Positions 760-26,931 are shown, counted from the stretch's first letter. The stretch is DNA of 64,000 nt from Candidatus Omnitrophota bacterium (GCA_015233675.1 JADFXH010000004.1:8492-72491), one strand, 5' to 3'. Numbers and translations: made by a program. Notes: generated by a model not told the origin, from the letters alone.

Positions 760-1029
760 TTAATATGACGTGTGCGTCGTGACATTTGTGTGCTGCACAC
801 AATTGGCAGTACCGGAGTTGGCGACCGCATTAGTATGCGTTGCTGTATTTTGACCGGAAGAAATATCAGTCAACGCGCCTGCTATCCCCAATGCGGCAAC
901 GGTTGACAAGCCGACCTTTAAAATGGTCTCCTTGCTGACAAAACCATCCTCATCTTTCATCAACTCGCCCAGAGATTTGGAGAGCGGAACTGTTCTATTA
1001 ACGATCTTATTTTTTATTTTCTTTTTCAT
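760..1029 (-). CDS. Small (89 aa) protein with a prepilin-like G|FVSKE motif or degenerate Tat-like signal and a His/Thr/Asn-rich C-terminus
   Basis: ORF 760..1068. The internal ATG at 1029 has AAGGAG 6 nt upstream, so I prefer that start. Sequence ...MKDEDG FVSKE TILKVGLSTVAALGIAGAL... then THTN/QHTN/THTS repeats. Last gene of the pilus-motor operon. Confidence 0.55.
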   Translation of the reverse strand: MKKKIKNKIVNRTVPLSKSLGELMKDEDGFVSKETILKVGLSTVAALGIAGALTDISSGQNTATHTNAVANSGTANCVQHTNVTTHTSY

Positions 1030-1155
1030 TAGGAGCTCCTTGTGGCCGGCGATGAGAAATTTCCGCACTGATATGTCAAGATCTGCTACAAGCGCAAATT
1101 TCCCTTTTTTGCAGACCTTGGGAATCTTTTTTGGACTTAACCCTTACTACTTAAA

Positions 1156-1204: not shown

Positions 1205-2191
1205 TCAAGGCATCTGCTTGATCATCAAGTCCAGACGGGATTTACGTTTGTCCAAATCAACCATTTGCGAACGTAATGCATCTAAATCAGCCCTAAGTCC
1301 TGTTCCCTGATGGTTTAAATCATCAAGGCTGCTCTGTAGTTTATCCCCTTCAATATGCTGGCCGACCGTCAGCCGGGAGCTCTGGACCTTCTTGGTCATT
1401 TGTTCCATCAAAACTTTGAGCTGAGAATAATTTTGTTCTGAGAATTTTAACTCTGATTCCAACTGACGCAGTTGGGCATCGTCCCATTGATCGGCATCTG
1501 CTGAAGGCTTTTCGGATGGGTAACGGGCTATCTCAATTTCCAGGCCCTTGATCTGTTCTTTTAAAAGCTGTTGGTGGGCCAAAGCGCCGGCCGCCGGCAG
1601 CAAAGGTGTGTTTTTATGAAATTCCAGGATAGATTTATGCAGGGCCTCTTGCCTCTGCTGGCTGTCATAAATCATTTTCATCAACATTAATTTTTCTTTT
1701 TGGCGATGGGTCCCGGCTTGGGATTCCGGGGATTGGACATCGGACAGCGGCAAATTTTGCATGCCTTTTAGCTGCAAAAGCAGTTTTTGTTCTTGCTGGT
1801 ATCTCGCCTCCAAAGATTGTTGGATCAATTTGATGCTGTCTTCAATTTTTTGACTACGATTGTCCCAATAAAGGTTCTTTTCTTCTAAATTTGCGATCTG
1901 CCGGGCACGCCCGGGGTTTTGATCCTTCAACCTGTTTAATTCCTTATTAAAAAGGTCCCCTTGGGCCTCCAGACGCCCCAACTGCATCTGTAACTGCAAA
2001 ACCTGCTGTTTCATAGCATTGTTACGCACAACTAATCGATCATTATCTACGCTCAGTTTTCCTACACTCTGTTTTAAATTAGACAATACGGACTGCAAAG
2101 AAGAGGTTGCTGTCTGGACATTATCCTCTTGCGCCCGGCCGCAACAAGAAAAAAATACCATCCCTAAAATAACAGCAAAAAATAAACGCAT
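1205..2191 (-). CDS. Coiled-coil protein with lipoprotein-like signal peptide
   Basis: N-terminus MRLFFAVILGMVFFSCCG (hydrophobic signal followed by Cys). The rest is Q/L/E/K-rich heptad-like sequence. GAAGGA RBS upstream. Immediately downstream of pilC. Confidence 0.7.
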   Translation of the reverse strand: MRLFFAVILGMVFFSCCGRAQEDNVQTATSSLQSVLSNLKQSVGKLSVDNDRLVVRNNAMKQQVLQLQMQLGRLEAQGDLFNKELNRLKDQNPGRARQIANLEEKNLYWDNRSQKIEDSIKLIQQSLEARYQQEQKLLLQLKGMQNLPLSDVQSPESQAGTHRQKEKLMLMKMIYDSQQRQEALHKSILEFHKNTPLLPAAGALAHQQLLKEQIKGLEIEIARYPSEKPSADADQWDDAQLRQLESELKFSEQNYSQLKVLMEQMTKKVQSSRLTVGQHIEGDKLQSSLDDLNHQGTGLRADLDALRSQMVDLDKRKSRLDLMIKQMP

Positions 2192-3502: not shown

Positions 3503-3931
3503 CTAATAATTGCGCGCAATGGCTTCTTCGATTTCGGCTTTAGTAGAAATAAAAGTAGCAATACGGCATTTAGTCAACATTTCCAAATAATTTTTCTTGT
3601 CATCAGACAAAGGATTAACCATAACAACACTTAAAACTTCGCCAATGCAATCTAAGGCAATCACTCTTTCTTTTTGAGCTACCTCTTTAGGAATTAAACG
3701 AACAATCTGCGGGTCAATGGCATATTTATTGACAGCGATATATGGCAGACCGCACTGCACAACTAGCGCCACCACAACGTCCCGTTCATCAAGGAGGCCC
3801 AAATTTACAAGAATTTCACCAATAAATCCTCCATTGCCCTTCTGTATCTGCAGGGCAGATTCTAATTGCTGACGAGTGATCCTTTTACGTTGAATCAAAA
3901 TTTCTCCCAACAACGTTTTATAAGCGTCCAT
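3503..3931 (-). CDS. Standalone GspE-N / MshEN-type domain protein
   Basis: 142 aa. Contains LLGEILIQRKRITRQQLESALQIQ-KGNGG-FIGEILVNLGLLDERDVVVALVVQ, i.e. two 24-residue MshEN-like motifs with a 5-residue spacer. No ATPase domain. Confidence 0.8.
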   Translation of the reverse strand: MDAYKTLLGEILIQRKRITRQQLESALQIQKGNGGFIGEILVNLGLLDERDVVVALVVQCGLPYIAVNKYAIDPQIVRLIPKEVAQKERVIALDCIGEVLSVVMVNPLSDDKKNYLEMLTKCRIATFISTKAEIEEAIARNY

Positions 3932-3951
3932 ACAGCCCCCACCTATTTATA

Positions 3952-5676
3952 TTACTCATCTTCAGATGCCACGCGAAAAACTTCTGTCAAAGTCGTTTCG
4001 CCCGCACACATTTTATCAACAACATCATCAAAAAGCAATTTCATCCCCTGATTTCCCTGGGCATAACGAGTTATATCCATGGATGTTTTTTTCTTTAAAA
4101 GCATCTCACGAATGTTATCATCGATTTGCAAGACTTCTGTAACCCCTACACGGCCTTTATAGCCGGTACCACGACAATGTTCACAGCCCTTGCCTTCATA
4201 TAAAACAGTATCAGATTTAATTCGATGCTGAATCTTTTTCAAAATTTCCGGAGTTAAATCCACCGGCTTTTTACAAGAATCACAAATACGGCGGCACAAC
4301 CGTTGGGCGCAGACTAAAACTAAACTGGAGGCCACTAAAAAAGGCTCTAAGCCCATATCTACCAAACGAGTCACGGCACCAGCCGCGCTGTTAGTATGCA
4401 AAGTCGAAAGGACCAGCTGTCCCGTGAGAGATGCTTTGATCGCAATGTCTGCCGTCTCAGCATCCCGAATTTCACCCACCATCACCACATCCGGTGACTG
4501 ACGCAAAACTGCGCGCAGCCCGGTGGCAAAATCGAGCCCTATGTCCGGCCTGACTTCAATTTGAGTCAGGCCATCCACTAAATATTCTACCGGCTCTTCA
4601 ATGGTAATTATATTTCTATCCGATGTATTTAATTTGCTGATCAGTGAGTACAGAGTCGTCGATTTCCCGCTGCCGGTAGGTCCGGTCACAAGGATCATCC
4701 CATATGGCTTATAAATAGACTCTTCTAAGACACTCCTGGCATTTTTTGAGAACCCTAATTTAGACAGCCCCACTGAAAGATTATTTTTATCCAGCACGCG
4801 CATGACTATTTTCTGGCCAAAGGTTGTGGGCAGCAAAGATACACGAAAATCCACTTCCTGCTGTCCCACCTTCATTTTAAAGCGACCGTCCTGGGGGGTT
4901 TGGGTATTGGTGATATCCAGATTCGCCATGAGCTTAACCCGCACTCCCACCGCATTTTTACTTTCCTTGGGGATAGTTAATATGTCCTGCAATATACCGT
5001 CAATACGAAAACGGACACGCATCCCCTGTTCCAGAGGTTCTATGTGAATGTCTGATGCCCTTTGATGCAGAGCTTCCTTGATGACCAGATTAACGATGCG
5101 AATGACCGGCGCTTCATCATCGACTGATATCCCCCCTTGTTCTTGCAAAACGTCTTGTTTGCTGTCCTTTTTCTGCAGTATTTCGAAATCCTTGGATTCA
5201 GTGCTCTGGGCCTCTTCAGCCATTCTCGCAGAGGATGATTCATACAGCCGGCCAATACTGTGCAATATCTGACTTTCAGAAGCGATCACGATCTCAATTT
5301 CCTTGCCTGTCACATTACGCAAGTCATCCAGAGCAAATACATTTAACGGGTCAGCGATTGCCACTGTCAGCGTTGTCCCCAGCAACGAAAGAGGCATCGC
5401 CAGATACTGACGCGCAGTCTTCTCCGTTAGAATATCTTTAAGACGGCCATCGAAGCGGTATTTAGTCAGGTCAATGGAAGGTATATGAAGTTCCCTCATC
5501 AAGAGAGCAATCAAATCCTGTTCAGGGATAATCCCCTGTTTAACCAATGCTTTGACTAAACTGATATTTTTATCCTGCTGGGCTTCTATCAACGCATCAA
5601 CATCTGCCGGATTGATATTAGGCAGTTCTTTGAGAGTTCTTAAAATCCGTTCTTGAGTCGTGTCCATGAGCTCCAT
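3952..5676 (-). CDS. pilB: GspE/PilB-family secretion ATPase (copy 1)
   Basis: Walker A GPTGSGKST, Walker B/Asp box DVVMVGEIRD, His box GQLVLSTLHTN, tetracysteine CDSC…CEHC. N-terminal GspE-N domain present. Confidence 0.9.
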   Translation of the reverse strand: MELMDTTQERILRTLKELPNINPADVDALIEAQQDKNISLVKALVKQGIIPEQDLIALLMRELHIPSIDLTKYRFDGRLKDILTEKTARQYLAMPLSLLGTTLTVAIADPLNVFALDDLRNVTGKEIEIVIASESQILHSIGRLYESSSARMAEEAQSTESKDFEILQKKDSKQDVLQEQGGISVDDEAPVIRIVNLVIKEALHQRASDIHIEPLEQGMRVRFRIDGILQDILTIPKESKNAVGVRVKLMANLDITNTQTPQDGRFKMKVGQQEVDFRVSLLPTTFGQKIVMRVLDKNNLSVGLSKLGFSKNARSVLEESIYKPYGMILVTGPTGSGKSTTLYSLISKLNTSDRNIITIEEPVEYLVDGLTQIEVRPDIGLDFATGLRAVLRQSPDVVMVGEIRDAETADIAIKASLTGQLVLSTLHTNSAAGAVTRLVDMGLEPFLVASSLVLVCAQRLCRRICDSCKKPVDLTPEILKKIQHRIKSDTVLYEGKGCEHCRGTGYKGRVGVTEVLQIDDNIREMLLKKKTSMDITRYAQGNQGMKLLFDDVVDKMCAGETTLTEVFRVASEDE

Positions 5677-5743
5677 CCTACAACACTCTTTTCGTTTCTT
5701 TCGTCATTGGTTCAGAATAGCCCCCAACGAAGTCTAATAAGCA

Positions 5744-7465
5744 TTAGTCGGGTGCCGTCAATCGGATTACTTCTTCTAAAGTCGTCAACCCCAAAGAGGC
5801 CTTGATGACAGCGTCTTCCCGCATCGTTTTCATGCCTTGAGCGCGCGCCTCATTTTTAATTTCAGCCTCTGAACTCGAAATTAAAATCAACTCTTTAACT
5901 TTATTGGTCAGCATTAACGTTTCGGTGATCCCCACCCTTCCCTTATAACCCGTATTCAAACATTTATCGCACCCTTTGGGCCTGTAAAACTGCCCATTAT
6001 GATTCGGCAACAATTCTTTAAGATGAAATTCTTTAACGATCTCATTTCCAGCCGTGTAAGGCTCACGGCAATTCTGACATACCCGGCGTACCAGACGCTG
6101 GGCAACAATAGCGATCACCGAAGATGTGATCAAAAACGGTTCAATGCCCATATTGATCATACGGGTGATGGACCCTGGCCCCGTCGTAGTATGCAGGGAA
6201 GAAACCACCAGATGGCCGGTCAAAGCTGCCTTGACCGCGATATCCAGGGTTTCCGAATCCCGGATCTCACCGATGAGGATCACATCAGGGTCTTGACGCA
6301 AAATGGAACGCAAAGCCGCCGGAAAAGATAAACCGAATTCAGTGCGGATATTAACCTGATTAAACCCTTTCATTTGAAATTCCACAGGGTCTTCCACGGT
6401 CACAATATTTCTTCCGGGGGAATCAATATATTTAAGGATCGCATACAAGGTCGTGGTCTTACCGCTGCCGGTAGGCCCGCAGGCCAAAATCATGCCGTGA
6501 GGCTTATGACAGCACTCTTTTAATCTCTCCAGGGAGTCACTTTCAAAGCCCAGCTTATCAATATCCGCCATGTCCTGATTCTTATCCAAAACGCGTAAAA
6601 CAATTTTTTCACCCATAGCGGTAGGCAGCACATTAACCCGGAAATCCACCTCTTTCTTCCCTTTACTGGTCACAATTCGAAACCTCCCGTCTTGTGGAAG
6701 ACGGTGTTCGGCAATATCCAGGTTTGAAATGACTTTAATGCAAGAAATCAAAGGGAAATGCAGGCTCTTGGACATGCGGTCGATTTCCCTGATAAACCCG
6801 TCAACTCGATATCGAATACGCAGGCAATTTTCCATGGGCTCAATAAAAACATCACTGGCCTTTGCCTCTACCGCCTGATGGATAATCTTATTTGTCAACG
6901 TGATGATCGGAGCTTCCGCGCTGATATTTTCAACGGCTCTCTTATCAGGATGAGAATGATCTTTGATTAATTCAAGGCCCTGCGCCTCCTCTTTAATGTC
7001 CTGAAAAATTTCCTCAAGATCCGAAGAGTTATTATCCGCATAACTTCGCTCAAGAGCAGCACGCATCTCTTTAGGCCTGGCCAAAACAACGCTCACCGAC
7101 ATGGAAGTCATGGCCTTGACGTTATCAATGGTCAACATATCCATAGGATCAACCATGGCAATGGTCAACTGATCGTTGAGCCTGGAAATGGGAATCAATA
7201 ATGATTTCTTAGCTGTTTCCTTAGGGATCAATTTTAAAAGAGAGGGGTCGATCCTAAATAAATTCAAGTTGATCAAGGGTAATTGCAATGCTTCACTTAA
7301 GACGACGCTTAACTCATCCTCGGCGATTAATTTAAGCCTGAGAAGTATACGGCTTAATTCCCCTCCGGATCTTTCTTGTTCTTCAATGGCTCTATTGAGA
7401 TCTTCGGGGGCTACGATATGGTCACGCAAAAGAATTTCTTTGAGAGTATCTTGTGTGGGCAACAT
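5744..7465 (-). CDS. pilB: GspE/PilB-family secretion ATPase (copy 2)
   Basis: Walker A GPTGSGKTT, DVILIGEIRD, GHLVVSSLHTT, CQNC…CDKC. N-terminal GspE-N domain present. Confidence 0.9.
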   Translation of the reverse strand: MLPTQDTLKEILLRDHIVAPEDLNRAIEEQERSGGELSRILLRLKLIAEDELSVVLSEALQLPLINLNLFRIDPSLLKLIPKETAKKSLLIPISRLNDQLTIAMVDPMDMLTIDNVKAMTSMSVSVVLARPKEMRAALERSYADNNSSDLEEIFQDIKEEAQGLELIKDHSHPDKRAVENISAEAPIITLTNKIIHQAVEAKASDVFIEPMENCLRIRYRVDGFIREIDRMSKSLHFPLISCIKVISNLDIAEHRLPQDGRFRIVTSKGKKEVDFRVNVLPTAMGEKIVLRVLDKNQDMADIDKLGFESDSLERLKECCHKPHGMILACGPTGSGKTTTLYAILKYIDSPGRNIVTVEDPVEFQMKGFNQVNIRTEFGLSFPAALRSILRQDPDVILIGEIRDSETLDIAVKAALTGHLVVSSLHTTTGPGSITRMINMGIEPFLITSSVIAIVAQRLVRRVCQNCREPYTAGNEIVKEFHLKELLPNHNGQFYRPKGCDKCLNTGYKGRVGITETLMLTNKVKELILISSSEAEIKNEARAQGMKTMREDAVIKASLGLTTLEEVIRLTAPD

Positions 7466-7983
7466 CAGCGCGTTTCGTAATAACGATTGATGGCACTATT
7501 AATTTCCGTCGCAGTACTGACAAATGCCTGGACTGAACAGCTGGTAGACTTCTCAACATCTTCCAAAGCCTGGACATTTAAAGGGTTGGACATGGCTAAG
7601 GTCAGACTACGTCCGATTTTATCAATAGGAACCAGGCAGTAAAGCTTACATAAATTCAGAGGAACGGCCGCTACGACTTCGGGAGCAATTTCATAATTAG
7701 CCAATGGCAGATAGGGAAACCCGTATTGGCAAGTCAAGGCCTGCACCACATCCTCCTCGGTTCCCAATTTCATCTGAACTAACGCCTCACCAAACAGAAT
7801 GCCTTTTTCTTTTTGGTAAACCAAAATCGTTTCCATTTGAGCACGTGAAATAACACCGCGTTCAAGTAAAATTTCACCCAATTGCTTATTAACTGTTTTA
7901 TGAAACTGTCTCATGCCTTTACTATACCGATTACATAATAAATTGTCCAGCCCTGCGTTAAATCTTTGCTTTAAGCCTTCCAT
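7465..7983 (-). CDS. Standalone GspE-N / MshEN-type domain protein
   Basis: 172 aa. QLGEILLERGVISRAQMETILVYQ-KEKGI-LFGEALVQMKLGTEEDVVQALTCQ matches the tandem MshEN motif. Its stop overlaps the downstream ATPase start by 1 nt. Confidence 0.8.
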   Translation of the reverse strand: MEGLKQRFNAGLDNLLCNRYSKGMRQFHKTVNKQLGEILLERGVISRAQMETILVYQKEKGILFGEALVQMKLGTEEDVVQALTCQYGFPYLPLANYEIAPEVVAAVPLNLCKLYCLVPIDKIGRSLTLAMSNPLNVQALEDVEKSTSCSVQAFVSTATEINSAINRYYETR

Positions 7984-8042: not shown

Positions 8043-9155
8043 TTAAAAAATAGTCCGTTTTTTACTCAAATTCAATAAAAAACCTATCAATATGGCAAAA
8101 ACCATAAAAGAAGTTCGGCCATAACTGATTAACGGCAAGGTAATTCCCACCACCGGTAAAAGCCCCATGACCATGCCGATATTGATCACCACCTGCATGG
8201 CTAAAATACTGACGATGCCAACGGCAACCAGCTGCCCGAAAGGATCTTTGTTGTACCGGGCGATCTCAAAACCACAATAAATGATGACACCGTAACAATA
8301 GACTAAAATAATCCCCCCCAAAAGCCCCCACTCCTCGCCAATGACGGAAAAAATAAAATCCGTGTGTCTCTCCGGTAAGAAATTTAATTGATTCTGTGTT
8401 CCGGCAAGCCAGCCTTTTCCTAAAAGTTCACCGGAGCCAACGGCAATCTTTGATTGTGTAATGGTATAACCCGCGCCCAAAGGGTCACGGCCGGGATCAA
8501 GAAAAACTAACAACCGGTCTTTTTGATATGACTTTAAAATATGCCAAGCCAATGGCATCAGCAAAGCCATCAACCCCAGCAATCCCCAAAAATACCTGAG
8601 CGCTACCCCGCTGGCATAAAGCATGACCAAAAAAATGCCCATCACTAAAATAGCGGTCCCTAAATCCGGCTGTTTAAAAATAAGGGCCATTGAAATACCT
8701 ATCAATATCAACGGCCAAATCAAATCACCCCAAAACTCACGTAAAGAACTGGAAAAATCAAAAGACAGCTTCGGCCTGCGCTGAGAAAAATAACGGCCTA
8801 AAAAAAAGATGATAGCAAGCTTGCTAAACTCAGAAGGCTGAAAGCTAAAACCGGCGACTGAGAACCAACGAGTGGCCCCCAGAGCTTGACGCCCCATCAC
8901 CAATACCAGAATCAGGAAAACCACACTGACGCCGTAAACAATATACGCCACATCAAAAAATTTACGATAATCCCCTTGTGCCAATAAAAACATCAGTAAA
9001 ATCCCCAACACAGCACAAAAAAGCTGATCGTAAAATACAGAAACCCCCACCACATTATTATTAAAGGAAGCACTATAAAGAGCAAGAAGTCCTATTATTA
9101 TTATTAAAATGGTGTGGATCCAAATGATCCTGGGAATATGCCGCGCGGAAATCAT
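8043..9155 (-). CDS. rodA: SEDS-family peptidoglycan polymerase (RodA/FtsW)
   Basis: 370 aa polytopic membrane protein with SEDS blocks RWFSVAGFSFQPSEFSKL and PERHTDFIFSVIGEEWG. Confidence 0.8.
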   Translation of the reverse strand: MISARHIPRIIWIHTILIIIIGLLALYSASFNNNVVGVSVFYDQLFCAVLGILLMFLLAQGDYRKFFDVAYIVYGVSVVFLILVLVMGRQALGATRWFSVAGFSFQPSEFSKLAIIFFLGRYFSQRRPKLSFDFSSSLREFWGDLIWPLILIGISMALIFKQPDLGTAILVMGIFLVMLYASGVALRYFWGLLGLMALLMPLAWHILKSYQKDRLLVFLDPGRDPLGAGYTITQSKIAVGSGELLGKGWLAGTQNQLNFLPERHTDFIFSVIGEEWGLLGGIILVYCYGVIIYCGFEIARYNKDPFGQLVAVGIVSILAMQVVINIGMVMGLLPVVGITLPLISYGRTSFMVFAILIGFLLNLSKKRTIF

Positions 9156-11839: not shown

Positions 11840-13384
11840 TTAAATACCCCTGTCTGTTTTTTTCATAATATGAGATATCTTTTGGCTTAACTTTGACGTC
11901 AAAGCATTGGCTCTTAGCCGCCATTGCCAGTTATTGACCTTGGTAGCTGGCGTATTCATACGGCCTTCTTCCCTTAGGCCCAAAAAATCAGGCATGGGGA
12001 TAATGATGGTTTCGGCTTTTGAGCGCATCAGAACTTCAATCATCGTCCAATGCAAATTTCGAGACGTAAATTTCGTTTGCAAAACCCGGGCTATGTTGGC
12101 CTTTTCATGCGGATTAGCCTCTTTTTGGTACCATCCTTGAATGGTATTGTTATCATGTGTTCCGCTATAGGCGACACAGGAAACAGGATAATTAACAGGC
12201 ACATGCGGATTGGAATTAATGTCTCCGTTAAAAGCAAACAACAATACCCGCATACCCGGAAAACCAAATTTTTTCATTAATTCAACGACATCCGGCGTGA
12301 TTTCTCCCAAATCCTCAGCAATAATAGGAAGTGTTTTAAAACGTTTAGCCAGCGCCTTAAAAAAAGATTCTCCCGGCCCTTTGACCCAACGCCCGAAAAC
12401 TGCCAACTTTTCGTACGCAGGAATTTGCCAAAAACCGGCGAACCCGCGGAAATGATCAATACGCAGATAATCAAACATTTTTAAATCATGCGCGATGCGC
12501 TCAGTCCACCAGTTATACTTGACCTTTTTTAAATGTGCCCAGTTGTATACCGGATTTCCCCAACGTTGACCGGTTCTTGAAAAATAATCCGGGGGGCATC
12601 CGCTGATAAATTTCAACTGCCCTTTTCTATCGACTTTAAAGAATGACGGGTGACACCAGACATCCACACTGTCATAATTAACATAAATGGGGATGTCCCC
12701 GATGATAGCAACATTTTTACTATTGGCATAACCTTTAAGCTTATGCCACTGACGGAAAAATAAATACTGAATGAACTTAATCCGCTCTATATCCGAAGAA
12801 TTCTTGCGGGCAAATGTCCTGAGGGCTTGAGGTTTGCGGTTTTTCAAAACTCTGGGCCATTCATTCCAGCCTAGGCCGCCATAGGCAGATTTTATAACCA
12901 TGAATAAAGCAAAATCTTCAAGCCAATAGTGCTGGGTTTTAACAAATTGGTCAAAATCCTCCCGTAACGACATTTCCTTACAGGGGCACACCGCTTGGGA
13001 CACAAGCCTGACGGGACTCTTTTGAAAACGCCGATAAGCGGCATTAAATATCTTCTCTTTAAAAAGCCTCACCCTGGCATAATCCACTTTCCCCTCATCT
13101 AAAACCACCGGGATATTAACATCGCAAGGCCGCAGGAAGCCTTCAATCACCATCATCTCAGGGCTTATCAGCAGCGGGTTCCCCCCAAAAGCTGAAGAGC
13201 AACTGTACGGCGAATTGCCATTAATCCCATCGGTGGGATTGATCGGTAAAATCTGCCAGTACTTTTGTCCGCAAGCAGCCGCAAAGTCAACAAAAGCATA
13301 GGCAAAAGAACCCATATCCCCTATACCGTACTTAGAAGGTAACGAAGTGACATGCAACAAAATACCGCTATTACGTTTATACAT
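11840..13384 (-). CDS. malQ: 4-alpha-glucanotransferase (GH77)
   Basis: GILLHVTSLPSKYGIGDMG N-terminus, LRIDHFRGF, IIAEDLG, and the YSGTHDN block typical of MalQ. Confidence 0.9.
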   Translation of the reverse strand: MYKRNSGILLHVTSLPSKYGIGDMGSFAYAFVDFAAACGQKYWQILPINPTDGINGNSPYSCSSAFGGNPLLISPEMMVIEGFLRPCDVNIPVVLDEGKVDYARVRLFKEKIFNAAYRRFQKSPVRLVSQAVCPCKEMSLREDFDQFVKTQHYWLEDFALFMVIKSAYGGLGWNEWPRVLKNRKPQALRTFARKNSSDIERIKFIQYLFFRQWHKLKGYANSKNVAIIGDIPIYVNYDSVDVWCHPSFFKVDRKGQLKFISGCPPDYFSRTGQRWGNPVYNWAHLKKVKYNWWTERIAHDLKMFDYLRIDHFRGFAGFWQIPAYEKLAVFGRWVKGPGESFFKALAKRFKTLPIIAEDLGEITPDVVELMKKFGFPGMRVLLFAFNGDINSNPHVPVNYPVSCVAYSGTHDNNTIQGWYQKEANPHEKANIARVLQTKFTSRNLHWTMIEVLMRSKAETIIIPMPDFLGLREEGRMNTPATKVNNWQWRLRANALTSKLSQKISHIMKKTDRGI

Positions 13385-13422
13385 AAAAATAAAATGGCCT
13401 TACGACCTGCCTGCTAAAAAGT

Positions 13423-15846
13423 TTAAGTAATATTAACATGAAGGATTTCACCTAACTGTTTAAAATGTTTCACCCAGAGGCCCGCCAACTCATCAGTCCC
13501 TGCCTGAGAAATGATGCCCGGATATGTTTTCCGGCCCATGGCAAAATAAATATTTTGCGTCTTCCATAGATCCAAATCCAGACTCAATTGTCCCAAAACC
13601 CCCAAAATAGCAATAATTTTCTCCATGCTTTGAATATTATCCGGATGCTCTGACAAATGGTTCATCAGACTGCTGATCCTCTGACTCGCCAAAAAAGTAA
13701 AATTGGCCTGGTCACGCTTGAAAGACCATCGTTTCATCTCTTCTACCAATTGTTTAAAGCGGTTAATGTCCACCTCTTCGGCTTCAAGAACATCACTGAT
13801 GTCCCGATTAAGGACAAATTCTACAATGGTCATCAGCATACGCGGTAAAGGCAAACTGATCTCATTTTTAATCTGCATCAAGGGATAATGGTGATCGTAA
13901 ATCTGACGGAAACTCGTTTCAATATCTTCCATCGTCGATCCTAAGACCTGATTAAGGATTTTTCGCTGTTCTTCTTTAAACAGATGCCAAAGCGAATAAT
14001 TGTGATGCTTAAAATAATCTTTGATGAACCCGATCACACTGGGAATATCGCTCTCTAAAAAAGCATTCGTCATAAAAGAGCGCATTTTAGAGAACTCATC
14101 CGCATTTAAATAATCAACCCCTCCGATAAAATTATGGTCGCCTAAATGCAATACCGCAAAACATATATACGCCTGTTCCCATGTATCTTTAGAACGCACC
14201 TTTGCGCGTCCTACGGCAAGCCTCAGGCGTCCCGCTTCTTTAAGATCATACTGTTCGCTTTTGACGGTATAACTATACATATTAGTTTGAGGCGCGTATT
14301 GCTCAAATAAAGACGTCATCGCAAAATGAGCCCCCACACGCAAAAGATCCACAACCGAAGGCTTGACCATGGTGCGGTAAATTTGAGCTCCGTCCTTTAA
14401 TTCTGGGACATTGCTGACCACCCCGGACAAACGGGAGATGAACCCCTCTTCCAAGCCTACACTGGAGACGTCCTGAGCCAGCTGGATGGCTCGTGCCGCA
14501 TATTTAAGAGTCTGCACTGTCTCAATACCTGAAACCTCGTTAAAGAACCAACCGCAGGACGTATACATCAACATGGCATTTGTCTGCATTTCCAACAGTT
14601 TGAGAATTTTAATTTTCTCTTCTTCCCTGAGATCCCGACCGGTGACGTTTTGTAAAAACCTTTCTATATTCTCTTCACTGCGATCCAAAATGATTTCGGC
14701 ATATCTATCACGGACTCCCCAAGGGTCATTGGTAAAAGCAGCCATTTGATTCTCATACAAAGGCCCCAGCTGATCTCGCAGCCAATCCAATGACTGGCGC
14801 AAGGGAGCGCGCCACTTTTGATTCCATCCCGATTGGCCGCCGGTTGCACAGCCGCAATCCGAACGCCAGCGCTCAATTCCATGATTACAGCTCCATGACG
14901 AATTCTCTACAATTTCCACTTCTTGAGTCGGAGGGAATTTTTGCAAAAATTCCCCATAAATGGTCAACTGGGCCAAATGATTACTGCCAATATAATGCAG
15001 GCAATATGCCAGGGCCATATCGCCAAATTTATGGTGATGGCCATAGGTTTCTCCGTCAGTCGCAATATTAACAATTTGGGCGCCGGGATTACCAACGCTA
15101 AATTCATTCGTCAACCGCCTGGCAAACTGCTCGCCATTATTAAGCAAACCCTCAAATGCAACCCCGAGGGCAATCGGCCCATCATAAAAGAAAATACAAA
15201 TTTGCCTCCCTGAGGGCAGATAACAACGGTAAGGCACACGAGGATCAACCTTGGCTACAGAAACATCACGCCACAGCATTTCTTGGTCGCTATTCTTAAC
15301 TCGTCTGGCTTGGTGGGGAGCTAAAATGGTAAACTTAATTCCCTGTTCTGCCATCAAATCTAATGATTCCAGATCAACCGCAGTTTCAGCCAGCCACATA
15401 CCCTCAGGTTTCCGCTTAAATCTCGACTCAAAATCTTTAATTCCCCAAATGATCTGTGTGCGCTTGTCTTTCGAATTGGCCAGCGGCATGATCATGTGAT
15501 TATAAACCTGAGCGATCGCGCTGCCATGACCGGAAAATTGCTGTTGGCTTAATCGGTCAGCCTCCAAAATAGCCGCATAAATTTCAGGATCTTTATCCTG
15601 CATCCACGACAAAAGGGTAGGCCCGAAATTAAAACTGATCTTGGAATAATTGTTAACAATATCAACGATGCGGCGATTGTTGTCTAATATACGCGCGGCC
15701 ACATTACGGGCATAGCATTCTGCTGTGACCTTTTCATTCCAATCGTGATAAGGATAAGCGGAATCCTGCACTTCAACTTTATCCAGCCATGGATTTTCCC
15801 GCGGAGGCTGATAAAAATGGCCGTGTATACAAATAAATTTATTCAA
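13423..15846 (-). CDS. GH57-family glycoside hydrolase with a long C-terminal domain (DUF3536-type architecture)
   Basis: GH57 blocks IHGHFYQPPRENPW, GMWLAETAV (nucleophile Glu), ATDGETYGHHH. 807 aa. Confidence 0.85.
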   Translation of the reverse strand: MNKFICIHGHFYQPPRENPWLDKVEVQDSAYPYHDWNEKVTAECYARNVAARILDNNRRIVDIVNNYSKISFNFGPTLLSWMQDKDPEIYAAILEADRLSQQQFSGHGSAIAQVYNHMIMPLANSKDKRTQIIWGIKDFESRFKRKPEGMWLAETAVDLESLDLMAEQGIKFTILAPHQARRVKNSDQEMLWRDVSVAKVDPRVPYRCYLPSGRQICIFFYDGPIALGVAFEGLLNNGEQFARRLTNEFSVGNPGAQIVNIATDGETYGHHHKFGDMALAYCLHYIGSNHLAQLTIYGEFLQKFPPTQEVEIVENSSWSCNHGIERWRSDCGCATGGQSGWNQKWRAPLRQSLDWLRDQLGPLYENQMAAFTNDPWGVRDRYAEIILDRSEENIERFLQNVTGRDLREEEKIKILKLLEMQTNAMLMYTSCGWFFNEVSGIETVQTLKYAARAIQLAQDVSSVGLEEGFISRLSGVVSNVPELKDGAQIYRTMVKPSVVDLLRVGAHFAMTSLFEQYAPQTNMYSYTVKSEQYDLKEAGRLRLAVGRAKVRSKDTWEQAYICFAVLHLGDHNFIGGVDYLNADEFSKMRSFMTNAFLESDIPSVIGFIKDYFKHHNYSLWHLFKEEQRKILNQVLGSTMEDIETSFRQIYDHHYPLMQIKNEISLPLPRMLMTIVEFVLNRDISDVLEAEEVDINRFKQLVEEMKRWSFKRDQANFTFLASQRISSLMNHLSEHPDNIQSMEKIIAILGVLGQLSLDLDLWKTQNIYFAMGRKTYPGIISQAGTDELAGLWVKHFKQLGEILHVNIT

Positions 15847-15899
15847 ATTAAATTTTCCTTTTTATTCCTGCTTCCTGGATCAAAGGAGAGACAGACGCC

Positions 15900-16199
15900 T
15901 TACTTACGAGTCTTAGGCTTACCGTTACCAGACCCGCTATTGGCAGAAGAAGCCTGCTCATTGATCTTGTAGACAATTGAGTTAAAAGCGTGCAATTCAC
16001 CTTCGACCAGAGAAACAAAAGTACGGCGATTTTTTACGGTATACGCGATTTTATCTTCGCGAGCCAGCCAACCCAAAGCCTGTAAAACAATTTCATCTTT
16101 CTCTTTGAGAGACTGCACCAACCGGCTGACATTGGTTTGTCCATTTTGCCCCAAATATCGCCATGTTTTTCCAGCTACTTCAATGATTTTGTCTTTCAT
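15900..16199 (-). CDS. Small winged-helix protein (DUF2582-like)
   Basis: 99 aa. The pattern AGKTWRYLGQNG…VSRLVQSL…LQALGWLAREDKI resembles the winged-HTH DUF2582 family. Basic tail. Confidence 0.55.
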   Translation of the reverse strand: MKDKIIEVAGKTWRYLGQNGQTNVSRLVQSLKEKDEIVLQALGWLAREDKIAYTVKNRRTFVSLVEGELHAFNSIVYKINEQASSANSGSGNGKPKTRK

Positions 16200-16457
16200 A
16201 GCACCCCTCCCAGTCTTCTTTAAAGTAGTATTCTAATCTCAAGAGCAACCATCGTCAACACCGGACTTTACTAACACTTTGAACTTAGTTGATAACGCCT
16301 GTTCGGCATCAATTTATTTTTCTATGTTCACGACATTGTATTCCCTTCGCAGGCAATGCGTCATTTTTTAGCGTTAAAAAAATGACCCCAGGAGCAAAAA
16401 GAATAAATTTAGCCCTTATAATGCCTGCGCACACTGGAAATGTTCATCAGGAAGAAC

Positions 16458-17414
16458 TCAGGGCTGTTGAGCTAGACGAGTGGCTCCTAGTATGACGGCA
16501 TCATCGCCGAGCTTGGAAGGTAAAACACGGCAGGTGTTGAATTTCTTAAAAAAAGGATCCGCACTGACTTCTTTGGCAATAACAGGTAAAATAAAATTAC
16601 CGCAAGCCTTGATGACCCCACCGCCAAAAATAATAGCCTGCGGATTAAATATATGATTCAAAGAAACAGCTGTTTTGCCCAGGACCACCGCTGCTTTAGT
16701 CATGACTGATTTGACCACCGCGTCATTTTTAGCCAACGCTTCCTTTAAAATCCGGCTTTTGATCATGTTTAAATTTCCGTCATTAAGCTCTGTGACAATT
16801 GTCTTCCTGCCGGATTTAACAGCTAAACGGATATCGCGTTCAATGGCCCAACGGCTGGTCAACGCCTCAAGGCACCCACGATTGCCGCAATGACACATCG
16901 GGCCATCCAAATCCATGATCACATGGCCTAACTCCGTAGCTGCCCCCTGAGATCCTAATAATAATTTACCATCAATAATAACTGCCCCACCGACACCGGT
17001 TCCGGGAAAAATACCCACAACATGCGAAAGGCCTTTGGCCGCTCCCAGCCAAAGCTCACCTAATAGCCCTGCATTAACATCATTGGCGATGACCACCCGC
17101 ATGCGGTATTTCCGCTTTAAAGAAGCAACAAGAGGAAAACCGGTAAGAGCGATATTAGGCGCAGCCAAGATACGGTGATTGAGCGTATCCACAATACCAG
17201 GAACGCCCGCCCCGATACCCTTGATGGACGCGCGGCTAATGCTGTCCGTGCGGATCAATTCATCGATAGCATCGGACACGCAATTATAAATATCACGGGA
17301 CTTGACTTTTTTAGGGGTAGATATCTTAATGCGCGTCAAGATATTGCCCGACGCTGAAACTAAAGCCGCCGCGATCTTGGTGCCGCCTATATCAATCCCA
17401 ATATAGTAGTTCAT
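16458..17414 (-). CDS. ROK-family sugar kinase (glucokinase-like)
   Basis: GIDIGGTKI ATP-binding N-terminus and the ROK zinc motif CHCGNRGCLE. Its start overlaps the ppk1 stop (ATGA). Confidence 0.85.
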   Translation of the reverse strand: MNYYIGIDIGGTKIAAALVSASGNILTRIKISTPKKVKSRDIYNCVSDAIDELIRTDSISRASIKGIGAGVPGIVDTLNHRILAAPNIALTGFPLVASLKRKYRMRVVIANDVNAGLLGELWLGAAKGLSHVVGIFPGTGVGGAVIIDGKLLLGSQGAATELGHVIMDLDGPMCHCGNRGCLEALTSRWAIERDIRLAVKSGRKTIVTELNDGNLNMIKSRILKEALAKNDAVVKSVMTKAAVVLGKTAVSLNHIFNPQAIIFGGGVIKACGNFILPVIAKEVSADPFFKKFNTCRVLPSKLGDDAVILGATRLAQQP

Positions 17415-19429
17415 CGTGTGTAGTGATTGATAAAATATTCCTGAACGTCAAAAGCCACGCCTTCTTTTCTAATACGCCCGTAGCTGTGGTCACTTCTTAA
17501 AACCCTTGCCTTACGGGTGTCTTTTAAATAACTGTCCAGCATAAATTGCAGGTGACTTTTGATCTCAGGCTTGGTAATCTCAAACAAGAGTTCAATACGA
17601 CGGTCAAAATTTCTTGTCATCCAGTCCGCCGATGACAAAAATACACGGCCATTACCATTGTTATTAAAATAAAAGACCCTGGAATGCTCCAGAAAACGGT
17701 CCACAATGCTGCGCACTTCGATATTCTCACTTAATCCCTCGACCCCCGGCACAAGCGAACAAATGCCCCTTACGATCATCTTGATTTTAACACCTGCCTG
17801 AGAGGCCTCGTATAATTTTTCAATAATTTGAGTATCTTCCAAGGCGTTCATTTTAGCAATAATCAAACCGTTCTTGTATAACTGTTGGGCTTCAATTTCC
17901 TTGTCGATCAGATCAACGAAATATTTACGCAGATCATGCGGAGAGGAAATGACCCTCTTCCATGGGCTGGGAAGAGAATAACCGGTAATGACGTTAAACA
18001 CATCCGCGATGTCGCGGGCAAAATCGTCATTAGCCGTAAAAAACCCGATATCCGTATAAACATTGGCTGTTTTTTCATTATAATTCCCCGTTGCTAAATG
18101 CACATAACGGCGGATACGTCCTTCTTCCTTACGCACGATCAATGTCATCTTGGAATGGATCTTAAGCCCCGCGATCCCGTAAATCACATGACAGCCCGCC
18201 TGCTCTAGTTCACGCGACCATTGAATATTCTTTTCTTCTTCAAACCGAGCCTTGATCTCAACGACCACGGTCACCTGTTTACGGTTTTTAGCCGCCTCCA
18301 TCAAAGCCTTGATAATGGCTGAATCTTCATTAGTACGGTAAAGCGTCATCTTAATGGCCAGAACATCCGGGTCACGCGCCGCCACGGCAATGAGCTCACA
18401 GGTCGGCACAAAAGATTGAAAAGGCACATGGATAATAAAATCTTCCTCTTTGATCTTTTCAAAAATATTGTCATAAGCAAATTTTACCGGGGTAAAACTA
18501 GCATAACGCAGCTGCGGCTTTTCGATCGAGGCAGCCAGATCATAAAGGAAGGTCAGGTCCAAATCAGAAGCAATAAACGCAACCTCTTCTTTAGGGAAAT
18601 CGATACCATTACATAAAACTTCCAGAAGTTCGGGGGTGGTATCCTTTTCCATCTGTAAATACACGGACTTGGCGTTCGAACGTTTTTTTAATTCTTTTTC
18701 CAAAGCTTTGAGCAGATCGGGAGCGAAGCCTTCGTCAACTTCCAGCTCACTATCACGTAAAACCCTAAAAAGCGAAGCATCCTTAATCTTATAACCTTTA
18801 AAAAACTGTGTTAAATTGTCTTTGATCAGATGATCGGTCAGCACATACACCGATTCCTCTCCTTCCGCCGGTACTTTCAACAAACGGGGTACGGATTTCG
18901 GGATGGGAATAATCGCCAGATGATTCTTCTCAGAACGGATAATGTTGGCCGCAAAGGCAATGGTACGCGAAGGCAGTACCGGAAAAGGATGCCCGCCGTC
19001 CACGGCCATGGGAGTAATGATAGGATACAGAGTGGTATCAAAAAACCGCTGCACGTATTTTTTTTGTTCCGGGCTTAAGTTCTCCGGCTTTTTAATAAAG
19101 ATCTTCTCACCTTCCAAAGAGTCCCTGACAGAACCCTGATATACTTCATAAAATCTTTTCACCAGATCATCTGTACGCGTTTTGATTTCCGCAGAAAGTT
19201 CTTGGGGATAAAACCCGAACTGATCGCGCTTATTATAACCAGAAGCCATAAGTTTTTTGGCTCCTGACATCCTTACCATAAAGAATTCGTCGAGATTACT
19301 GGTAAAAATTGCTAAGAATTTGATGCGTTCCAAAAGCGGATTGCGTTCATCAGCGGCCTCTTCCAAAACCCGGCGGTTGAATTCCAGCCAGCTTAAATCC
19401 CTGTGAATAAATTTTTCTTTAATTTCCAT
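17411..19429 (-). CDS. ppk: Polyphosphate kinase 1
   Basis: RDLSWLEFNRRVLEEA N-terminus, two PLD-like halves (…KIHSKMTLIVR…). 672 aa. Confidence 0.95.
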   Translation of the reverse strand: MEIKEKFIHRDLSWLEFNRRVLEEAADERNPLLERIKFLAIFTSNLDEFFMVRMSGAKKLMASGYNKRDQFGFYPQELSAEIKTRTDDLVKRFYEVYQGSVRDSLEGEKIFIKKPENLSPEQKKYVQRFFDTTLYPIITPMAVDGGHPFPVLPSRTIAFAANIIRSEKNHLAIIPIPKSVPRLLKVPAEGEESVYVLTDHLIKDNLTQFFKGYKIKDASLFRVLRDSELEVDEGFAPDLLKALEKELKKRSNAKSVYLQMEKDTTPELLEVLCNGIDFPKEEVAFIASDLDLTFLYDLAASIEKPQLRYASFTPVKFAYDNIFEKIKEEDFIIHVPFQSFVPTCELIAVAARDPDVLAIKMTLYRTNEDSAIIKALMEAAKNRKQVTVVVEIKARFEEEKNIQWSRELEQAGCHVIYGIAGLKIHSKMTLIVRKEEGRIRRYVHLATGNYNEKTANVYTDIGFFTANDDFARDIADVFNVITGYSLPSPWKRVISSPHDLRKYFVDLIDKEIEAQQLYKNGLIIAKMNALEDTQIIEKLYEASQAGVKIKMIVRGICSLVPGVEGLSENIEVRSIVDRFLEHSRVFYFNNNGNGRVFLSSADWMTRNFDRRIELLFEITKPEIKSHLQFMLDSYLKDTRKARVLRSDHSYGRIRKEGVAFDVQEYFINHYTR

Positions 19430-19433
19430 GATC

Positions 19434-20969
19434 TTAATCCTGCGTTTTTACAGTCAGCGTCAATTTGTTACCCGTAATTTCTTCAAACAACTCTTTCTTT
19501 TCCAGGAAATTTCCTTTTTCCAACAAAAAATTCTCATGTGTATAGGCCACGATCGTCGCATCACCTGCCGCATTAAACTTAACTTCCAGTTTTTTAATTT
19601 TCTGTTTATGTGAACGGTCCAAAGAATTGGCAATACGCAAAAGAGCGCTTAATTTCTGCACTAAAATCTGCTCCGGTGACGCCAGAGAATTATATAACAG
19701 ATGCGATTTTAAAGGCGCCGAGCGCCTGTGATAACGGGCGATACAGGCAATGATATTGATCTCATGCTCAGTCAGCCTGAATAGATTTAAGGAACTAATG
19801 ACGTATTCGCTGTGCTTGTGATGCGAGCGGTTATTGACAAACGTCCCTATATCATGCAAATAAGAAGCCAAAAGAAGATACAAACGGTCTTTTTCTTCCA
19901 GGCCCAAGATGCCCTTGAAAGCGCCAAAAAGCTGATCTGTCAAAGAAGCCACGTGTTTAAGATGGTTTAAATCCATGCCGTATTTACGGCAAATAAAATG
20001 CGCCACTGACACCAACTGGCTTAACTTATTGTCACCTTCCTCCATGTCGAATTTAAAAAGTAAATGCGCCAGAATTGCCTCAGACAAAGAAGCCTCGAGA
20101 ATGTAGACATATTCATTTTTATTAAGTTTAAACATGGTGTTAAGAATAATGGCATACCCTGTAATGGTGGAGGCAATATCCCCAGGGACATTGTAGGTGC
20201 TGGCAATCTCTTCGACGTTCATCTGCTTTAGGCGCGCAAGTAATTCCTGGGCTTCACTGGCTTTAAATTTAAAAAAGTCTGAGTCACGACGCTTATTAGG
20301 CAGCACATTCTGGATAAAAACAGAATAGTTCTCATCAATGAGAATAATATCGTCAATACTCAAATTAATATTATTTTTCTTAAGGAAAAATATTTCATTC
20401 TCGATGTACTCTTCGGTGGCTTCGTGCACCTCCTGCATTGACCCATCCAGATTCTGCATAAATTGTGAAAGACGCAGCGTTCCAATAGGAAAACCGATAT
20501 TCATAAGGGTAAGCCCTTTTTCCATGACCGAGATATCCAAAGAGCCGGCGCCTAACTCCGCGATCAACAAGTTTTTCTTGTCCACCGGATAGGTTTCCTT
20601 TAACTTATGGCTGAGGAAATAATCAATATAGTAAACAACATCTCCCGTGTTTAGAACATCAATCTTAAACCCTGTCTTACGCAGAACCGTATCAAGGAAA
20701 ATATCGCGGTTACGCGCTTCGCGCACAGCGGTGGTGGCAATGACCATGACATTTTCGACATCGTATTCTTTGAGAGATTCTTTGTATTTCTGTAATACCG
20801 CGGCGGTTTGATTGATGATAGTCTGAGGGATACGGCCCTTAAGGAATACGTGCTTGCCTAAAGGGATACTGTTTTTAAGCGACTCGATGATCTTGACATT
20901 TTCCCCGTGACTTTCAGCGATCAAGAGCTTAATAGTAGAAGAACCAATATCTATAACGGCAACTCGCAT
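19434..20969 (-). CDS. ppx: Exopolyphosphatase, Ppx/GppA family, with a C-terminal HD domain
   Basis: VAVIDIGSSTIKLLI actin-like fold start, LGAGSLDIS, HD-domain block LLASYLHDIG…HHKHS. Confidence 0.9.
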   Translation of the reverse strand: MRVAVIDIGSSTIKLLIAESHGENVKIIESLKNSIPLGKHVFLKGRIPQTIINQTAAVLQKYKESLKEYDVENVMVIATTAVREARNRDIFLDTVLRKTGFKIDVLNTGDVVYYIDYFLSHKLKETYPVDKKNLLIAELGAGSLDISVMEKGLTLMNIGFPIGTLRLSQFMQNLDGSMQEVHEATEEYIENEIFFLKKNNINLSIDDIILIDENYSVFIQNVLPNKRRDSDFFKFKASEAQELLARLKQMNVEEIASTYNVPGDIASTITGYAIILNTMFKLNKNEYVYILEASLSEAILAHLLFKFDMEEGDNKLSQLVSVAHFICRKYGMDLNHLKHVASLTDQLFGAFKGILGLEEKDRLYLLLASYLHDIGTFVNNRSHHKHSEYVISSLNLFRLTEHEINIIACIARYHRRSAPLKSHLLYNSLASPEQILVQKLSALLRIANSLDRSHKQKIKKLEVKFNAAGDATIVAYTHENFLLEKGNFLEKKELFEEITGNKLTLTVKTQD

Positions 20970-21773: not shown

Positions 21774-21829
21774 AATGTTATCCCCTCTCTGATACAAAAT
21801 AAATATTGCGGCGGGCGCTAAGAATCTAT

Positions 21830-23341: not shown

Positions 23342-23348
23342 AAATTTT

Positions 23349-24851: not shown

Positions 24852-24854
24852 AGA

Positions 24855-26419: not shown

Positions 26420-26501
26420 ATTTATATCACTTGCATTCTATTCGGCCTTTGTTTCTCTTCTCAGGCCAAATCTGCTTGGGCCTATGAGTGAAAGGATAAC
26501 C

Positions 26502-26647
26502 GTTGTTATTAGCGACACGGAAATTTTTTGCCGTCTGCTACGGTTTACAGCTTGGCTGCTATCGCGATAAATCATTCGCGGCATCCAAGCTGTAAATCCT
26601 TGCAGACTTTTGCCAAAAAATTTCTGAATGTGTCGCAAACAACAACG
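26502..26647. repeat. Palindromic intercistronic element, family A, copy 1 (inverted relative to copies 2 and 3)
   Basis: Arms gttgttattagcgacacggaaattttttgccgtctgctacgg … ccttgcagacttttgccaaaaaatttctgaatgtgtcgcaaacaacaac. Its reverse complement aligns along its length with 28958..29138. Confidence 0.75.
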
Positions 26648-26675
26648 TTTATCCTTCTATACATTTTGATAATGT

Positions 26676-26904: not shown

Positions 26905-26931
26905 TTCGTCACGAATGATTTCAAACCCCCT

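Follow-up and report, generated by a model that had tools for sequence, protein, structure and literature searches.

MshEN is one of the few widespread receptor domains for cyclic diguanosine monophosphate (c-di-GMP), and is understood as a cis-regulatory domain of the PilB/GspE ATPases and of some glycosyltransferases. How its ligand binding controls pilus assembly is unclear; ATPase activity is unaffected in vitro. Here we describe an operon of a Candidatus Omnitrophota bacterium (GCA_015233675.1 JADFXH010000004.1:8492-72491; the whole stretch of 64,000 nt is called the window, and coordinates are counted within it) in which two small free-standing MshEN proteins, S1 and S2, are encoded together with two PilB/GspE-type ATPases, A1 and A2, and a single PilC/GspF platform protein. 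The Omnitrophota are ultra-small and probably host-associated, and pili are thought to be central to their lifestyle. An earlier note on this DNA had proposed that second-messenger sensing is split off from these motors into separate adaptor proteins.

The classical receptors, Vibrio cholerae MshE (VcMshE; 5HTL), Myxococcus xanthus PilB and Clostridium perfringens PilB2, share with S1 and S2 a two-subdomain fold and the layout of the known or predicted c-di-GMP site, two 24-residue motifs joined by a 5-residue spacer (24+5+24, 53 residues; each motif specified at 11 positions), with Gly at position 3, Gln at position 24 and a hydrophobic triad in each motif. Mutants of VcMshE lose binding to different degrees: G11L has no detectable binding, and G40I, Q61A and Q32A bind 72-fold, 12-fold and 9-fold more weakly, respectively (PMC5013675 Suppl. 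Table 1); XpsE, a natural non-binder, carries both G11V and G40L (PMC5013675). What sets the Omnitrophota locus apart from this MshE type is that the domain is a separate protein of 142-149 aa, that the MshEN domain of the ATPase itself is degenerate, and that the Arg at position 1 is replaced, by Q in motif I and L in motif II of S1 and by L and F in S2.

A further group comprises the (MshEN)2-4-T2SSE ATPases, e.g., Thermus thermophilus PilF, Cthe_1107 of Clostridia and the PilB of Nitrospirota (PMC5013675 Suppl. Table 4; PMC11731258). These resemble the locus in having several modules per motor and in combining binding with non-binding copies (in PilF, GSPII-A does not bind, GSPII-B and GSPII-C do), and by analogy S1 and S2 are best compared to the distal repeats of such multi-MshEN motors. 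Unlike in these ATPases, however, the modules predicted to bind are separate genes here, only the predicted non-binding copy is fused, and the second free module, S2, adjoins PilC and not an ATPase.

The closest functional analogue is the FimX-PilZ-PilB system of Xanthomonas and Pseudomonas (7LKO; PMC8389850), in which PilB has an MshEN-like N-domain without the motifs and is informed of c-di-GMP in trans by other proteins docked to this domain. The receptor of that system is FimX, a degenerate EAL protein bridged by a non-binding PilZ, whereas the candidate receptor here is itself paralogous to MshEN; scans of the window proteins revealed no PilZ, EAL or GGDEF family, and the resemblance is functional only. 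Pseudomonas aeruginosa PA3740 (MshEN_N plus a divergent T2SSE_N1) is, by its description, likewise a small MshEN protein without an ATPase domain; it is among the experimentally characterised c-di-GMP-binding proteins and is linked to swarming motility (PMC5013675). Two assembly-type ATPases apparently acting on one machine have been described in Acinetobacter baylyi, namely PilB and TfpB (PMC11656802), but A1 and A2 score far below the cut-off of the TfpB model (432-440 bits against 850) and a free MshEN cofactor is not described there. Cyanobacterial CdgR, considered as another free MshEN protein, is a ComFB-family protein and was set aside. A plain free MshEN protein is neither listed in the main text or architecture table of Wang et al. 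(PMC5013675) nor mentioned in a 2024 review of PilB cofactors, and searches of the open-access full-text literature found no description of a free MshEN beside blind motors; the combination of free MshEN proteins with degenerate motor domains seems undescribed.

Free and motor-borne MshEN domains of the operon

The operon consists of six genes in one direction, RodA-S1-A1-A2-S2-PilC, from 9155 to 2206 on the minus strand (Table 1). Pfam recognizes MshEN alone in S1 (149 aa) and S2 (142 aa), and T2SSE together with MshEN in both ATPases; in NCBI, S1 (HQL12_03945) and S2 (HQL12_03930) are annotated as hypothetical proteins of a metagenome-assembled genome (MAG) labelled 'Candidatus Omnitrophica bacterium'. 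The four minus-strand open reading frames (ORFs) on which the earlier note was built, and the peptides quoted from them, were recovered exactly. The reading that we favour, with a probability of roughly 0.6, is that the operon encodes a conserved Omnitrophota pilus or secretion motor module in which c-di-GMP would be received by the free S1 and S2, while the domains fused to the ATPases have lost the ligand contacts and would have only a structural or docking role. The sensor, judged from its residues and genomic setting, probably works as a detachable part of the pilus motor.

By their models, S1 and S2 are complete MshEN domains (MshEN_N followed by MshEN_C/T2SSE_N1) with no further domain. 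AlphaFold2 models built from homologue alignments (predicted local distance difference test scores of 90.3 for S1 and 91.4 for S2) have four helices followed by an alpha/beta subdomain, as expected of the MshEN_N bundle and MshEN_C, and both proteins score above the PF05157 cut-off. Structural comparison, which the earlier note had advised with MshE and PilB2, returned VcMshE with c-di-GMP (5HTL) as the top Foldseek match in the PDB for both models (template modelling score, TM, 0.80-0.85; root-mean-square deviation 2.2-2.5 Å over 138-141 columns; for S2 alone, TM 0.83-0.85 and 2.2 Å), followed by the GSPII-A and GSPII-B domains of PilF, the latter in complexes with c-di-GMP, and the Xanthomonas citri PilB N-domain with PilZ.

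All four MshEN domains have the 24+5+24 spacing that had been claimed for the ATPase N-domains. Counting motif matches barely separates them: the strict 11-position scores for motifs I and II are 9+6 in S1, 8+8 in S2, 7+7 in A1 and 4+8 in A2, i.e., 15-16 of 22 for the free proteins against 12-14 for the ATPases, and strict or relaxed counts were dropped as a classifier. They fail to discriminate because the hydrophobic positions are needed by the four-helix bundle and are retained in all four proteins; in the free proteins, the triad at positions 2, 17 and 21 reads L/M/L and F/V/L (S1) or L/L/L and I/V/L (S2).

Individual ligand-contact positions do separate the proteins. Gly3, equivalent to G11 and G40 of VcMshE, is present in both motifs of S1 and S2, and so is Gln24. 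In A1, Gly3 is replaced by K and S and the Gln24 of motif II by A; in A2 the replacements are L and V, and E. The earlier note was therefore right that the ATPases have lost signature residues, with the exception of the motif I Gln24, which stays Q in both. A2 carries at the G11 position the very Gly-to-Leu change that abolishes binding in VcMshE, and A1 has a bulky Lys there. The fit of the first small protein, which the note had called almost perfect, was overstated (9+6 of 11+11), although its Gly and Gln pairs are intact; S2, described as a close fit, keeps both pairs as well but lacks the Arg at position 1.

This Arg is absent from S1 too, and the residue at the start of S2 motif II is F or Y in orthologues. 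The Thermus PilF work extended the position-1 consensus to R/K/L: the wild-type motif II of GSPII-B starts with Leu, and a K167L variant binds at 2 nM, with an affinity that is even improved (PMC11731258). By analogy, a non-Arg position 1 (L, F/Y) may be compatible with c-di-GMP binding, the tested precedent being Leu; for Gln, Phe and Tyr no binding test was found in the cited literature. NCBIfam model NF053729, a curated description of the 53-residue c-di-GMP site with a cut-off of 38 bits, scores S1 (48.0-50.4 bits) and S2 (51.3-53.8 bits) above and A2 (20.0 bits) below that line.

The 172 aa given earlier for the first small protein correspond to its longest ORF. S1 is 149 aa both in the NCBI annotation and in >120 orthologous clusters, which places its start very probably at Met24 of that ORF, coordinate 7914; AAAGG lies four bases 5' of this ATG, and the 5' extension of 23 codons (7915-7983) is probably untranslated. 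At its other end, S1 shares an ATGA with A1, its stop codon overlapping the A1 start. Each of the two genes has its own start and stop codon in the window and in 46 loci; they are distinct ORFs and do not encode one polypeptide with two MshEN domains. That the two are a single gene broken by a frameshift or an assembly error was rejected: the ATGA overlap and the separate ORFs recur in dozens of independent MAGs, A1 has a complete MshEN domain of its own, and NCBI and JGI call the genes separately. Origin of S1 and S2 by fission of A1 and A2 was also rejected, since both ATPases retain their N-domain and S1 is 40% identical to S2, against 23-30% between either protein and the ATPase N-domains. 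Sensing has thus not literally been split off, as the earlier note had it: the ATPases keep a full, degenerate MshEN domain, and S1 and S2 are extra paralogous modules.

Both motors have the features of T2SSE assembly ATPases, i.e., the T2SSE domain (1e-130 to 1e-132 in Pfam), the catalytic motifs and the N1 domain, and their N-terminal MshEN domains are complete, if degenerate. They are 39% identical to each other. The catalytic motifs of A1 are all canonical (Walker A, Asp box, Walker B, His box and tetracysteine). A2 has Walker A, the Asp box and the tetracysteine, but TGQ in place of TGH in the His box and SPD in place of DPD before Walker B; these changes (residues ~394-428) hold in 53-58 of 59 orthologues, and A2 may be catalytically different from A1. 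Both ATPases fall below the equivalog cut-offs of TIGR02538 for PilB (603-605 against 675.65) and TIGR02533 for GspE (565-590 against 630.25), and scans of the window proteins found no PilZ, pilin, PilM/N/O/Q or secretin gene in the 64 kb, so that they may serve either a type IVa pilus or a type II secretion-like system.

Table 1. Features of the module and their coordinates (window coordinates unless a locus is named)
Feature	Coordinates	Strand	Evidence
RodA/FtsW-family protein	8043..9155	-	Pfam FTSW_RODA_SPOVE 1.6e-101
S1, longest ORF, 172 aa	7465..7983	-	ORF calling
S1, free-standing MshEN protein, 149 aa	7465..7914	-	Pfam MshEN 7.4e-18; NF053729 48.0 bits
S1, 53-residue predicted c-di-GMP site, QLGEILLERGVISRAQMETILVYQ-KEKGI-LFGEALVQMKLGTEEDVVQALTCQ	7726..7884	-	motif match
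A1, PilB/GspE-type ATPase, 573 aa	5744..7465	-	Pfam T2SSE 2.5e-130, MshEN 4.8e-21
A1, degenerate motif region, TLKEILLRDHIVAPEDLNRAIEEQ-ERSGG-ELSRILLRLKLIAEDELSVVLSEA	7289..7447	-	Gly3 to K, S; motif II Gln24 to A
A2, second PilB/GspE-type ATPase, 574 aa	3952..5676	-	Pfam T2SSE 1.4e-132, MshEN at N-terminus
A2, degenerate motif region, RILRTLKELPNINPADVDALIEAQ-QDKNI-SLVKALVKQGIIPEQDLIALLMRE	5491..5649	-	Gly3 to L, V; motif II Gln24 to E
S2, free-standing MshEN protein, 142 aa, directly upstream of PilC	3503..3931	-	Pfam MshEN 2.8e-13; NF053729 51.3 bits
S2, 53-residue predicted c-di-GMP site, LLGEILIQRKRITRQQLESALQIQ-KGNGG-FIGEILVNLGLLDERDVVVALVVQ	3755..3913	-	motif match
PilC/GspF platform protein, 405 aa	2206..3423	-	Pfam T2SSF 2.2e-67; NCBIfam PilC and GspF models
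Coiled-coil protein with hydrophobic N-terminus, 328 aa, 3' of PilC	1205..2191	-	no significant Pfam match
GGDEF insertion, example	L047:1807-6966

Conservation and linkage of the free MshEN genes

A survey of how far the arrangement has spread, which the earlier note had suggested, covered one genome per GTDB species and yielded 70 loci with an S2 relative (41-86% identity), all in Omnitrophota MAGs; Auribacterota and metagenomic lineages add further cases, treated below. Many MAGs with the module (loci L006, L008, L011 and others), in which S2 identity reaches 86%, bear the name 'uncultured Planctomycetales bacterium' in their records, a label that is probably the default of the submitting pipeline and not a real assignment. 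The MshEN-ATPase-ATPase-MshEN order noted in the window is found within RodA-S1-A1-A2-S2-PilC in nearly every locus that has enough flanking DNA, with RodA as the conserved upstream neighbour of the module and PilC as the constant downstream neighbour of S2, and S1-A1-A2-S2-PilC persists down to ~46% S2 identity. Averaged over 36 complete loci, identity to the window proteins is 63-68% for S1 and S2 as well as for the ATPases, PilC and RodA; this equal rate of divergence marks the two as core components and not decaying fragments.

When all MshEN domains of the Omnitrophota loci are aligned to one profile, the free proteins retain the contacts almost without exception: S2 orthologues have Gly3 in 74/74 (motif I) and 74/74 (motif II) and Gln24 in 73/74 and 74/74, and S1 orthologues have Gly3 in 49/50 and 48/50 and Gln24 in 50/50 and 48/50. 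Motif I of the A1 orthologues has Gly3 in 0/47 aligned sequences (K in 36) and motif II in 2/49 (S in 41); for A2 the counts are 0/30 aligned (L/I) and 5/58 (D/V/E). Gln24 of motif I is mostly Q in both ATPases, and that of motif II is kept in 0/49 A1 (A/G/S instead) and 1/61 A2 orthologues (E in 58). The earlier claim that the predicted binding determinants reside in the free-standing proteins and not in the ATPase-fused domains thus holds, by residue counts, across the phylum. Across 44 aligned free MshEN sequences of diverse origin, no columns but the two Gly are invariant, and the two Gln are >90% conserved. The ATPase domains keep the MshEN fold although they lack these residues. That the free proteins hold on to them so strictly therefore speaks for a role in ligand binding and not in folding, and such a role is the best explanation for it. 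The residue pattern of the four proteins, read from alignments of ~70 species-level genomes and other lineages, is far beyond chance.

Free MshEN proteins are abundant: ~66 of the 150 closest cluster representatives are at most 215 aa long, although these include some fragments at contig ends. A further free family of ~210-220 aa (P0397-P0403, P0262, P0400) occurs in Omnitrophota, with no member in this window. A few of its members have extra precomputed Pfam matches (PF10415, PF14332) and for some representatives the query aligns twice along the protein, as would be expected of an additional MshEN_N-like repeat.

Outside Omnitrophota, a 184-aa free MshEN overlaps the start of PilB in 'Ca. Tritonobacter lacicola' (Auribacterota) and is followed by PilC-PilS-PilR, and another contig has the order MshEN-PilB-PilB-PilC; in both, the Gly pair is present in the free protein and absent from the ATPases. 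A metagenome scan added 80 further loci. Complete free MshEN genes that encode the Gly pair number 17 in this set; PilB-type ATPases come directly after 10 of them, and the MshEN domains of the ATPases downstream of a free MshEN lack the pair in 15/15 cases. None of the 36 loci whose ATPases carry an intact MshEN has a free MshEN neighbour, and where tandem ATPases occur with no free MshEN, the domains of both are intact (3/3 loci). Comparing intact domains in unselected partner ATPases, 3/3 against 0/15, gives a Fisher p of 0.0012 with a small control. Across independent lineages, then, a free MshEN neighbour and an intact motif on the ATPase appear to exclude each other. Seven loci (L079, L082, L084-L087 and L121) pair a single free MshEN with two ATPases.

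The junctions within the module differ in tightness. The S1-A1 gap has a median of -1 nt, with stop/start overlap in 59% of 46 loci, and the A1-A2 gap a median of 4 nt; the S2-PilC gap has a median of 10 nt (71 loci), and the A2-S2 junction is the loosest, with a median of 76 nt and up to 5 kb. The module therefore reads as S1-A1-A2 plus S2-PilC. The proposal of one adaptor per motor ATPase does not survive these distances, because S2 tracks PilC (10 nt) and not A2 (76 nt), nor the gene counts of other lineages, in which a single free MshEN goes with two ATPases.

A natural fusion bears directly on the partnership of S1. P0252 (L080:6001-8298, JGI metagenome 3300009514), a protein of 765 aa, joins a distal MshEN that is intact and a proximal one that is degenerate to an A1-like ATPase, in the manner of the multi-MshEN ATPases. 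Its intact MshEN is 37-38% identical to S1 and S2 and its ATPase 43% identical to A1, and its gene is followed by a second PilB and then PilC. By sequence and gene order, P0252 is an S1-A1 pair joined in one polypeptide.

The fusion and the junctions also bear on the possibility that S1 and S2 are decoys or selectors, which would mimic the ATPase N-domain and compete with A1 and A2 for one platform site, offered by PilC or by a PilM/GspL-like protein, with c-di-GMP shifting their affinity and so picking the motor that engages the single PilC. Such a scheme keeps the premise of ligand binding, its logic being competition instead of activation by association. The tie of S2 to PilC and not A2, and the presence of two assembly-type ATPases with one PilC, would suit it, as would the retention in S1 and S2 of the whole MshEN_C/N1 subdomain, which binds GspL in GspE (2BH1 and 4PHT are partial structural matches) and is part of the PilZ-binding domain in X. 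citri PilB (7LKO). Competition is a serious alternative, though we regard it as rather unlikely: P0252 puts the S-type domain in cis on an A1-like ATPase, as fits a subunit better than a competitor, the translational coupling of S1 and A1 suggests co-assembly, and the operon has no PilM or GspL gene.

Cyclase genes have entered the operon in one subclade. In six loci (L039, L043, L044, L047, L048 and L055), a gene for a GGDEF(AGDEF)-AAA_16/STAND-HEAT protein of 1375-1425 aa lies between A2 and S2, and in four of them (L039, L043, L047 and L055) it is preceded by a REC-GGDEF gene with an intact GGEEF; S2 is still attached to PilC in 6/6. In L047, the gene after PilC resembles that of a type IV pilin (N_methyl motif). 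Another clade (L029-L041 and L050; e.g., L030:1335-2762) has a protein of ~475 aa upstream of RodA-S1, with a GGDEF-like C-terminal domain whose site is degenerate ('GDHEF'). The evidence for action of S1 and S2 in trans, drawn from four independent lines (junctions within the operon, the fusion, the cyclase insertion and the pattern in other phyla), is indirect but convergent.

The same gene neighbourhoods bear on whether the pilus motor is the target at all. S1 and S2 could be c-di-GMP receptors that act elsewhere, on RodA-dependent cell-wall growth, on transcription or by buffering c-di-GMP, their position beside the ATPases being historical. RodA is indeed a conserved upstream neighbour, some free MshEN genes elsewhere lie away from ATPases (L078, L081 and L083), and Omnitrophota have the further free families of ~214 aa. 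The order S1-A1-A2-S2-PilC, held in nearly every locus to ~46% S2 identity, the S1 stop/A1 start overlap, the fusion with an A1-like ATPase and the adjacency to PilB in other phyla make such a target very improbable.

Ligand reception in trans: proposed mechanism and points against it

The gene structure, fold, residue conservation, synteny, fused homologue and cyclase insertion are as described above; from them we infer that the ligand is bound, which partners are engaged and in which direction they are regulated. S1 and S2 would each bind one c-di-GMP in their four-helix bundle, as their invariant Gly, Gln, hydrophobic triads and fold imply, and would then associate with the motor in trans. 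S1 would most likely partner A1, as the detached distal MshEN repeat of an (MshEN)2-PilB, and S2 would most likely work at the PilC platform, on A2, or both. Their association would gate the assembly activity of two ATPases on a single PilC platform, and in some lineages the c-di-GMP that loads them would be made by the cyclases encoded in the operon.

Several observations weigh against this reading. S1 matches motif II poorly (6/11 strict) and has Gln at position 1 of motif I. PilF GSPII-A is a non-binder even once its consensus is restored (PMC12002112), so the presence of the motifs is not fully predictive. A1 is borderline for NF053729, at 37.5 bits as a whole protein and 42.4 bits as an isolated N-terminus against the cut-off of 38; as a classifier the model separates A2 but not cleanly A1, and the case against binding by A1 therefore rests on specific residues. 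With only Ser at the Gly40-equivalent position, A1 may bind c-di-GMP weakly. The metagenome scan was seeded with the intact-motif pattern, which leaves the unselected partner ATPases (n=3) as the only fair control for mutual exclusion, and in L078, L081 and L083 the free MshEN genes do not adjoin ATPases. Finally, family scans of the window proteins found no GGDEF, EAL or HD-GYP gene in the 64 kb, so the presence of c-di-GMP in this organism is taken from its relatives.

Part of this list would also suit S1 and S2 as ligand-independent structural subunits or chaperones of the motors, with Gly and Gln conserved for packing or for a protein interface; in Pseudomonas and Xanthomonas a PilZ that does not bind would be comparable, as would the GSPII-A domain of PilF. 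GSPII-A is a precedent for motifs that mispredict binding, S1 and S2 both lack the position-1 Arg, and c-di-GMP enzymes were not found in the window. Set against this are the ATPase-fused MshEN domains, which fold without the residues in question, and the 44 free MshEN proteins, in which the ligand-contact Gly pair and nothing else is invariant; one subclade carries GGDEF genes within the operon, and the cis and trans configurations are complementary. A purely structural role is distinctly improbable on these grounds, and reception of c-di-GMP by the free proteins stays the preferred reading.

A bolder version of this preferred reading is that free MshEN is a diffusible, c-di-GMP-loaded 'clutch' or selector: S1 would arm A1, and S2, seated on PilC, would admit or exclude A2 with its non-canonical His box. 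We offer it tentatively and with more doubt than confidence. If true, Omnitrophota, Auribacterota and further uncultured lineages would share a widespread way of controlling pilus motors that has so far gone undescribed, as an evolutionary alternative to the classical cis-sensing PilB.

Surroundings of the module and significance

Directly 3' of PilC, the 328-aa coiled-coil protein may be a further component of the machine; its homologues come after PilC in ~25 related loci. Apart from the module, a single gene with a link to second messengers was seen in the window, that of a 205-aa cyclic-nucleotide-binding (cNMP_binding) protein (46459-47076, -). At 760-1068 (-), a 102-aa ORF weakly matches HxsA3, a protein with His-Xaa-Ser repeats (NF038309; 19.9 bits, cut-off 65). 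Two successive sets of Mrp-antiporter/complex-I-like membrane subunits (Proton_antipo_M, NADHdh) occupy 21090-34039 (-), the first set also including genes for 20-kDa and 49-kDa subunits, which suggests duplicated membrane-bound hydrogenase or Mrp-type complexes. Storage-polymer genes are abundant in the window: 11840-20969 and 38229-45859 (-) carry glycogen/alpha-glucan genes (GH77, two GH57, a branching enzyme, a GT4/GT5 synthase and DUF4912) together with genes for polyphosphate kinase, a Ppx/GppA phosphatase and a ROK kinase.

A ligand-binding polypeptide separate from the ATPase would make sensing separable from motor function, so that the two parts could be titrated, mutated and imaged independently. 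Free MshEN would add a new class to the known cofactors of PilB. Counts of c-di-GMP receptors in uncultured phyla would also change, as scoring PilB alone would miss the receptor. For the Omnitrophota themselves, control of the pilus motor is of ecological interest because of the presumed central role of pili in their lifestyle.

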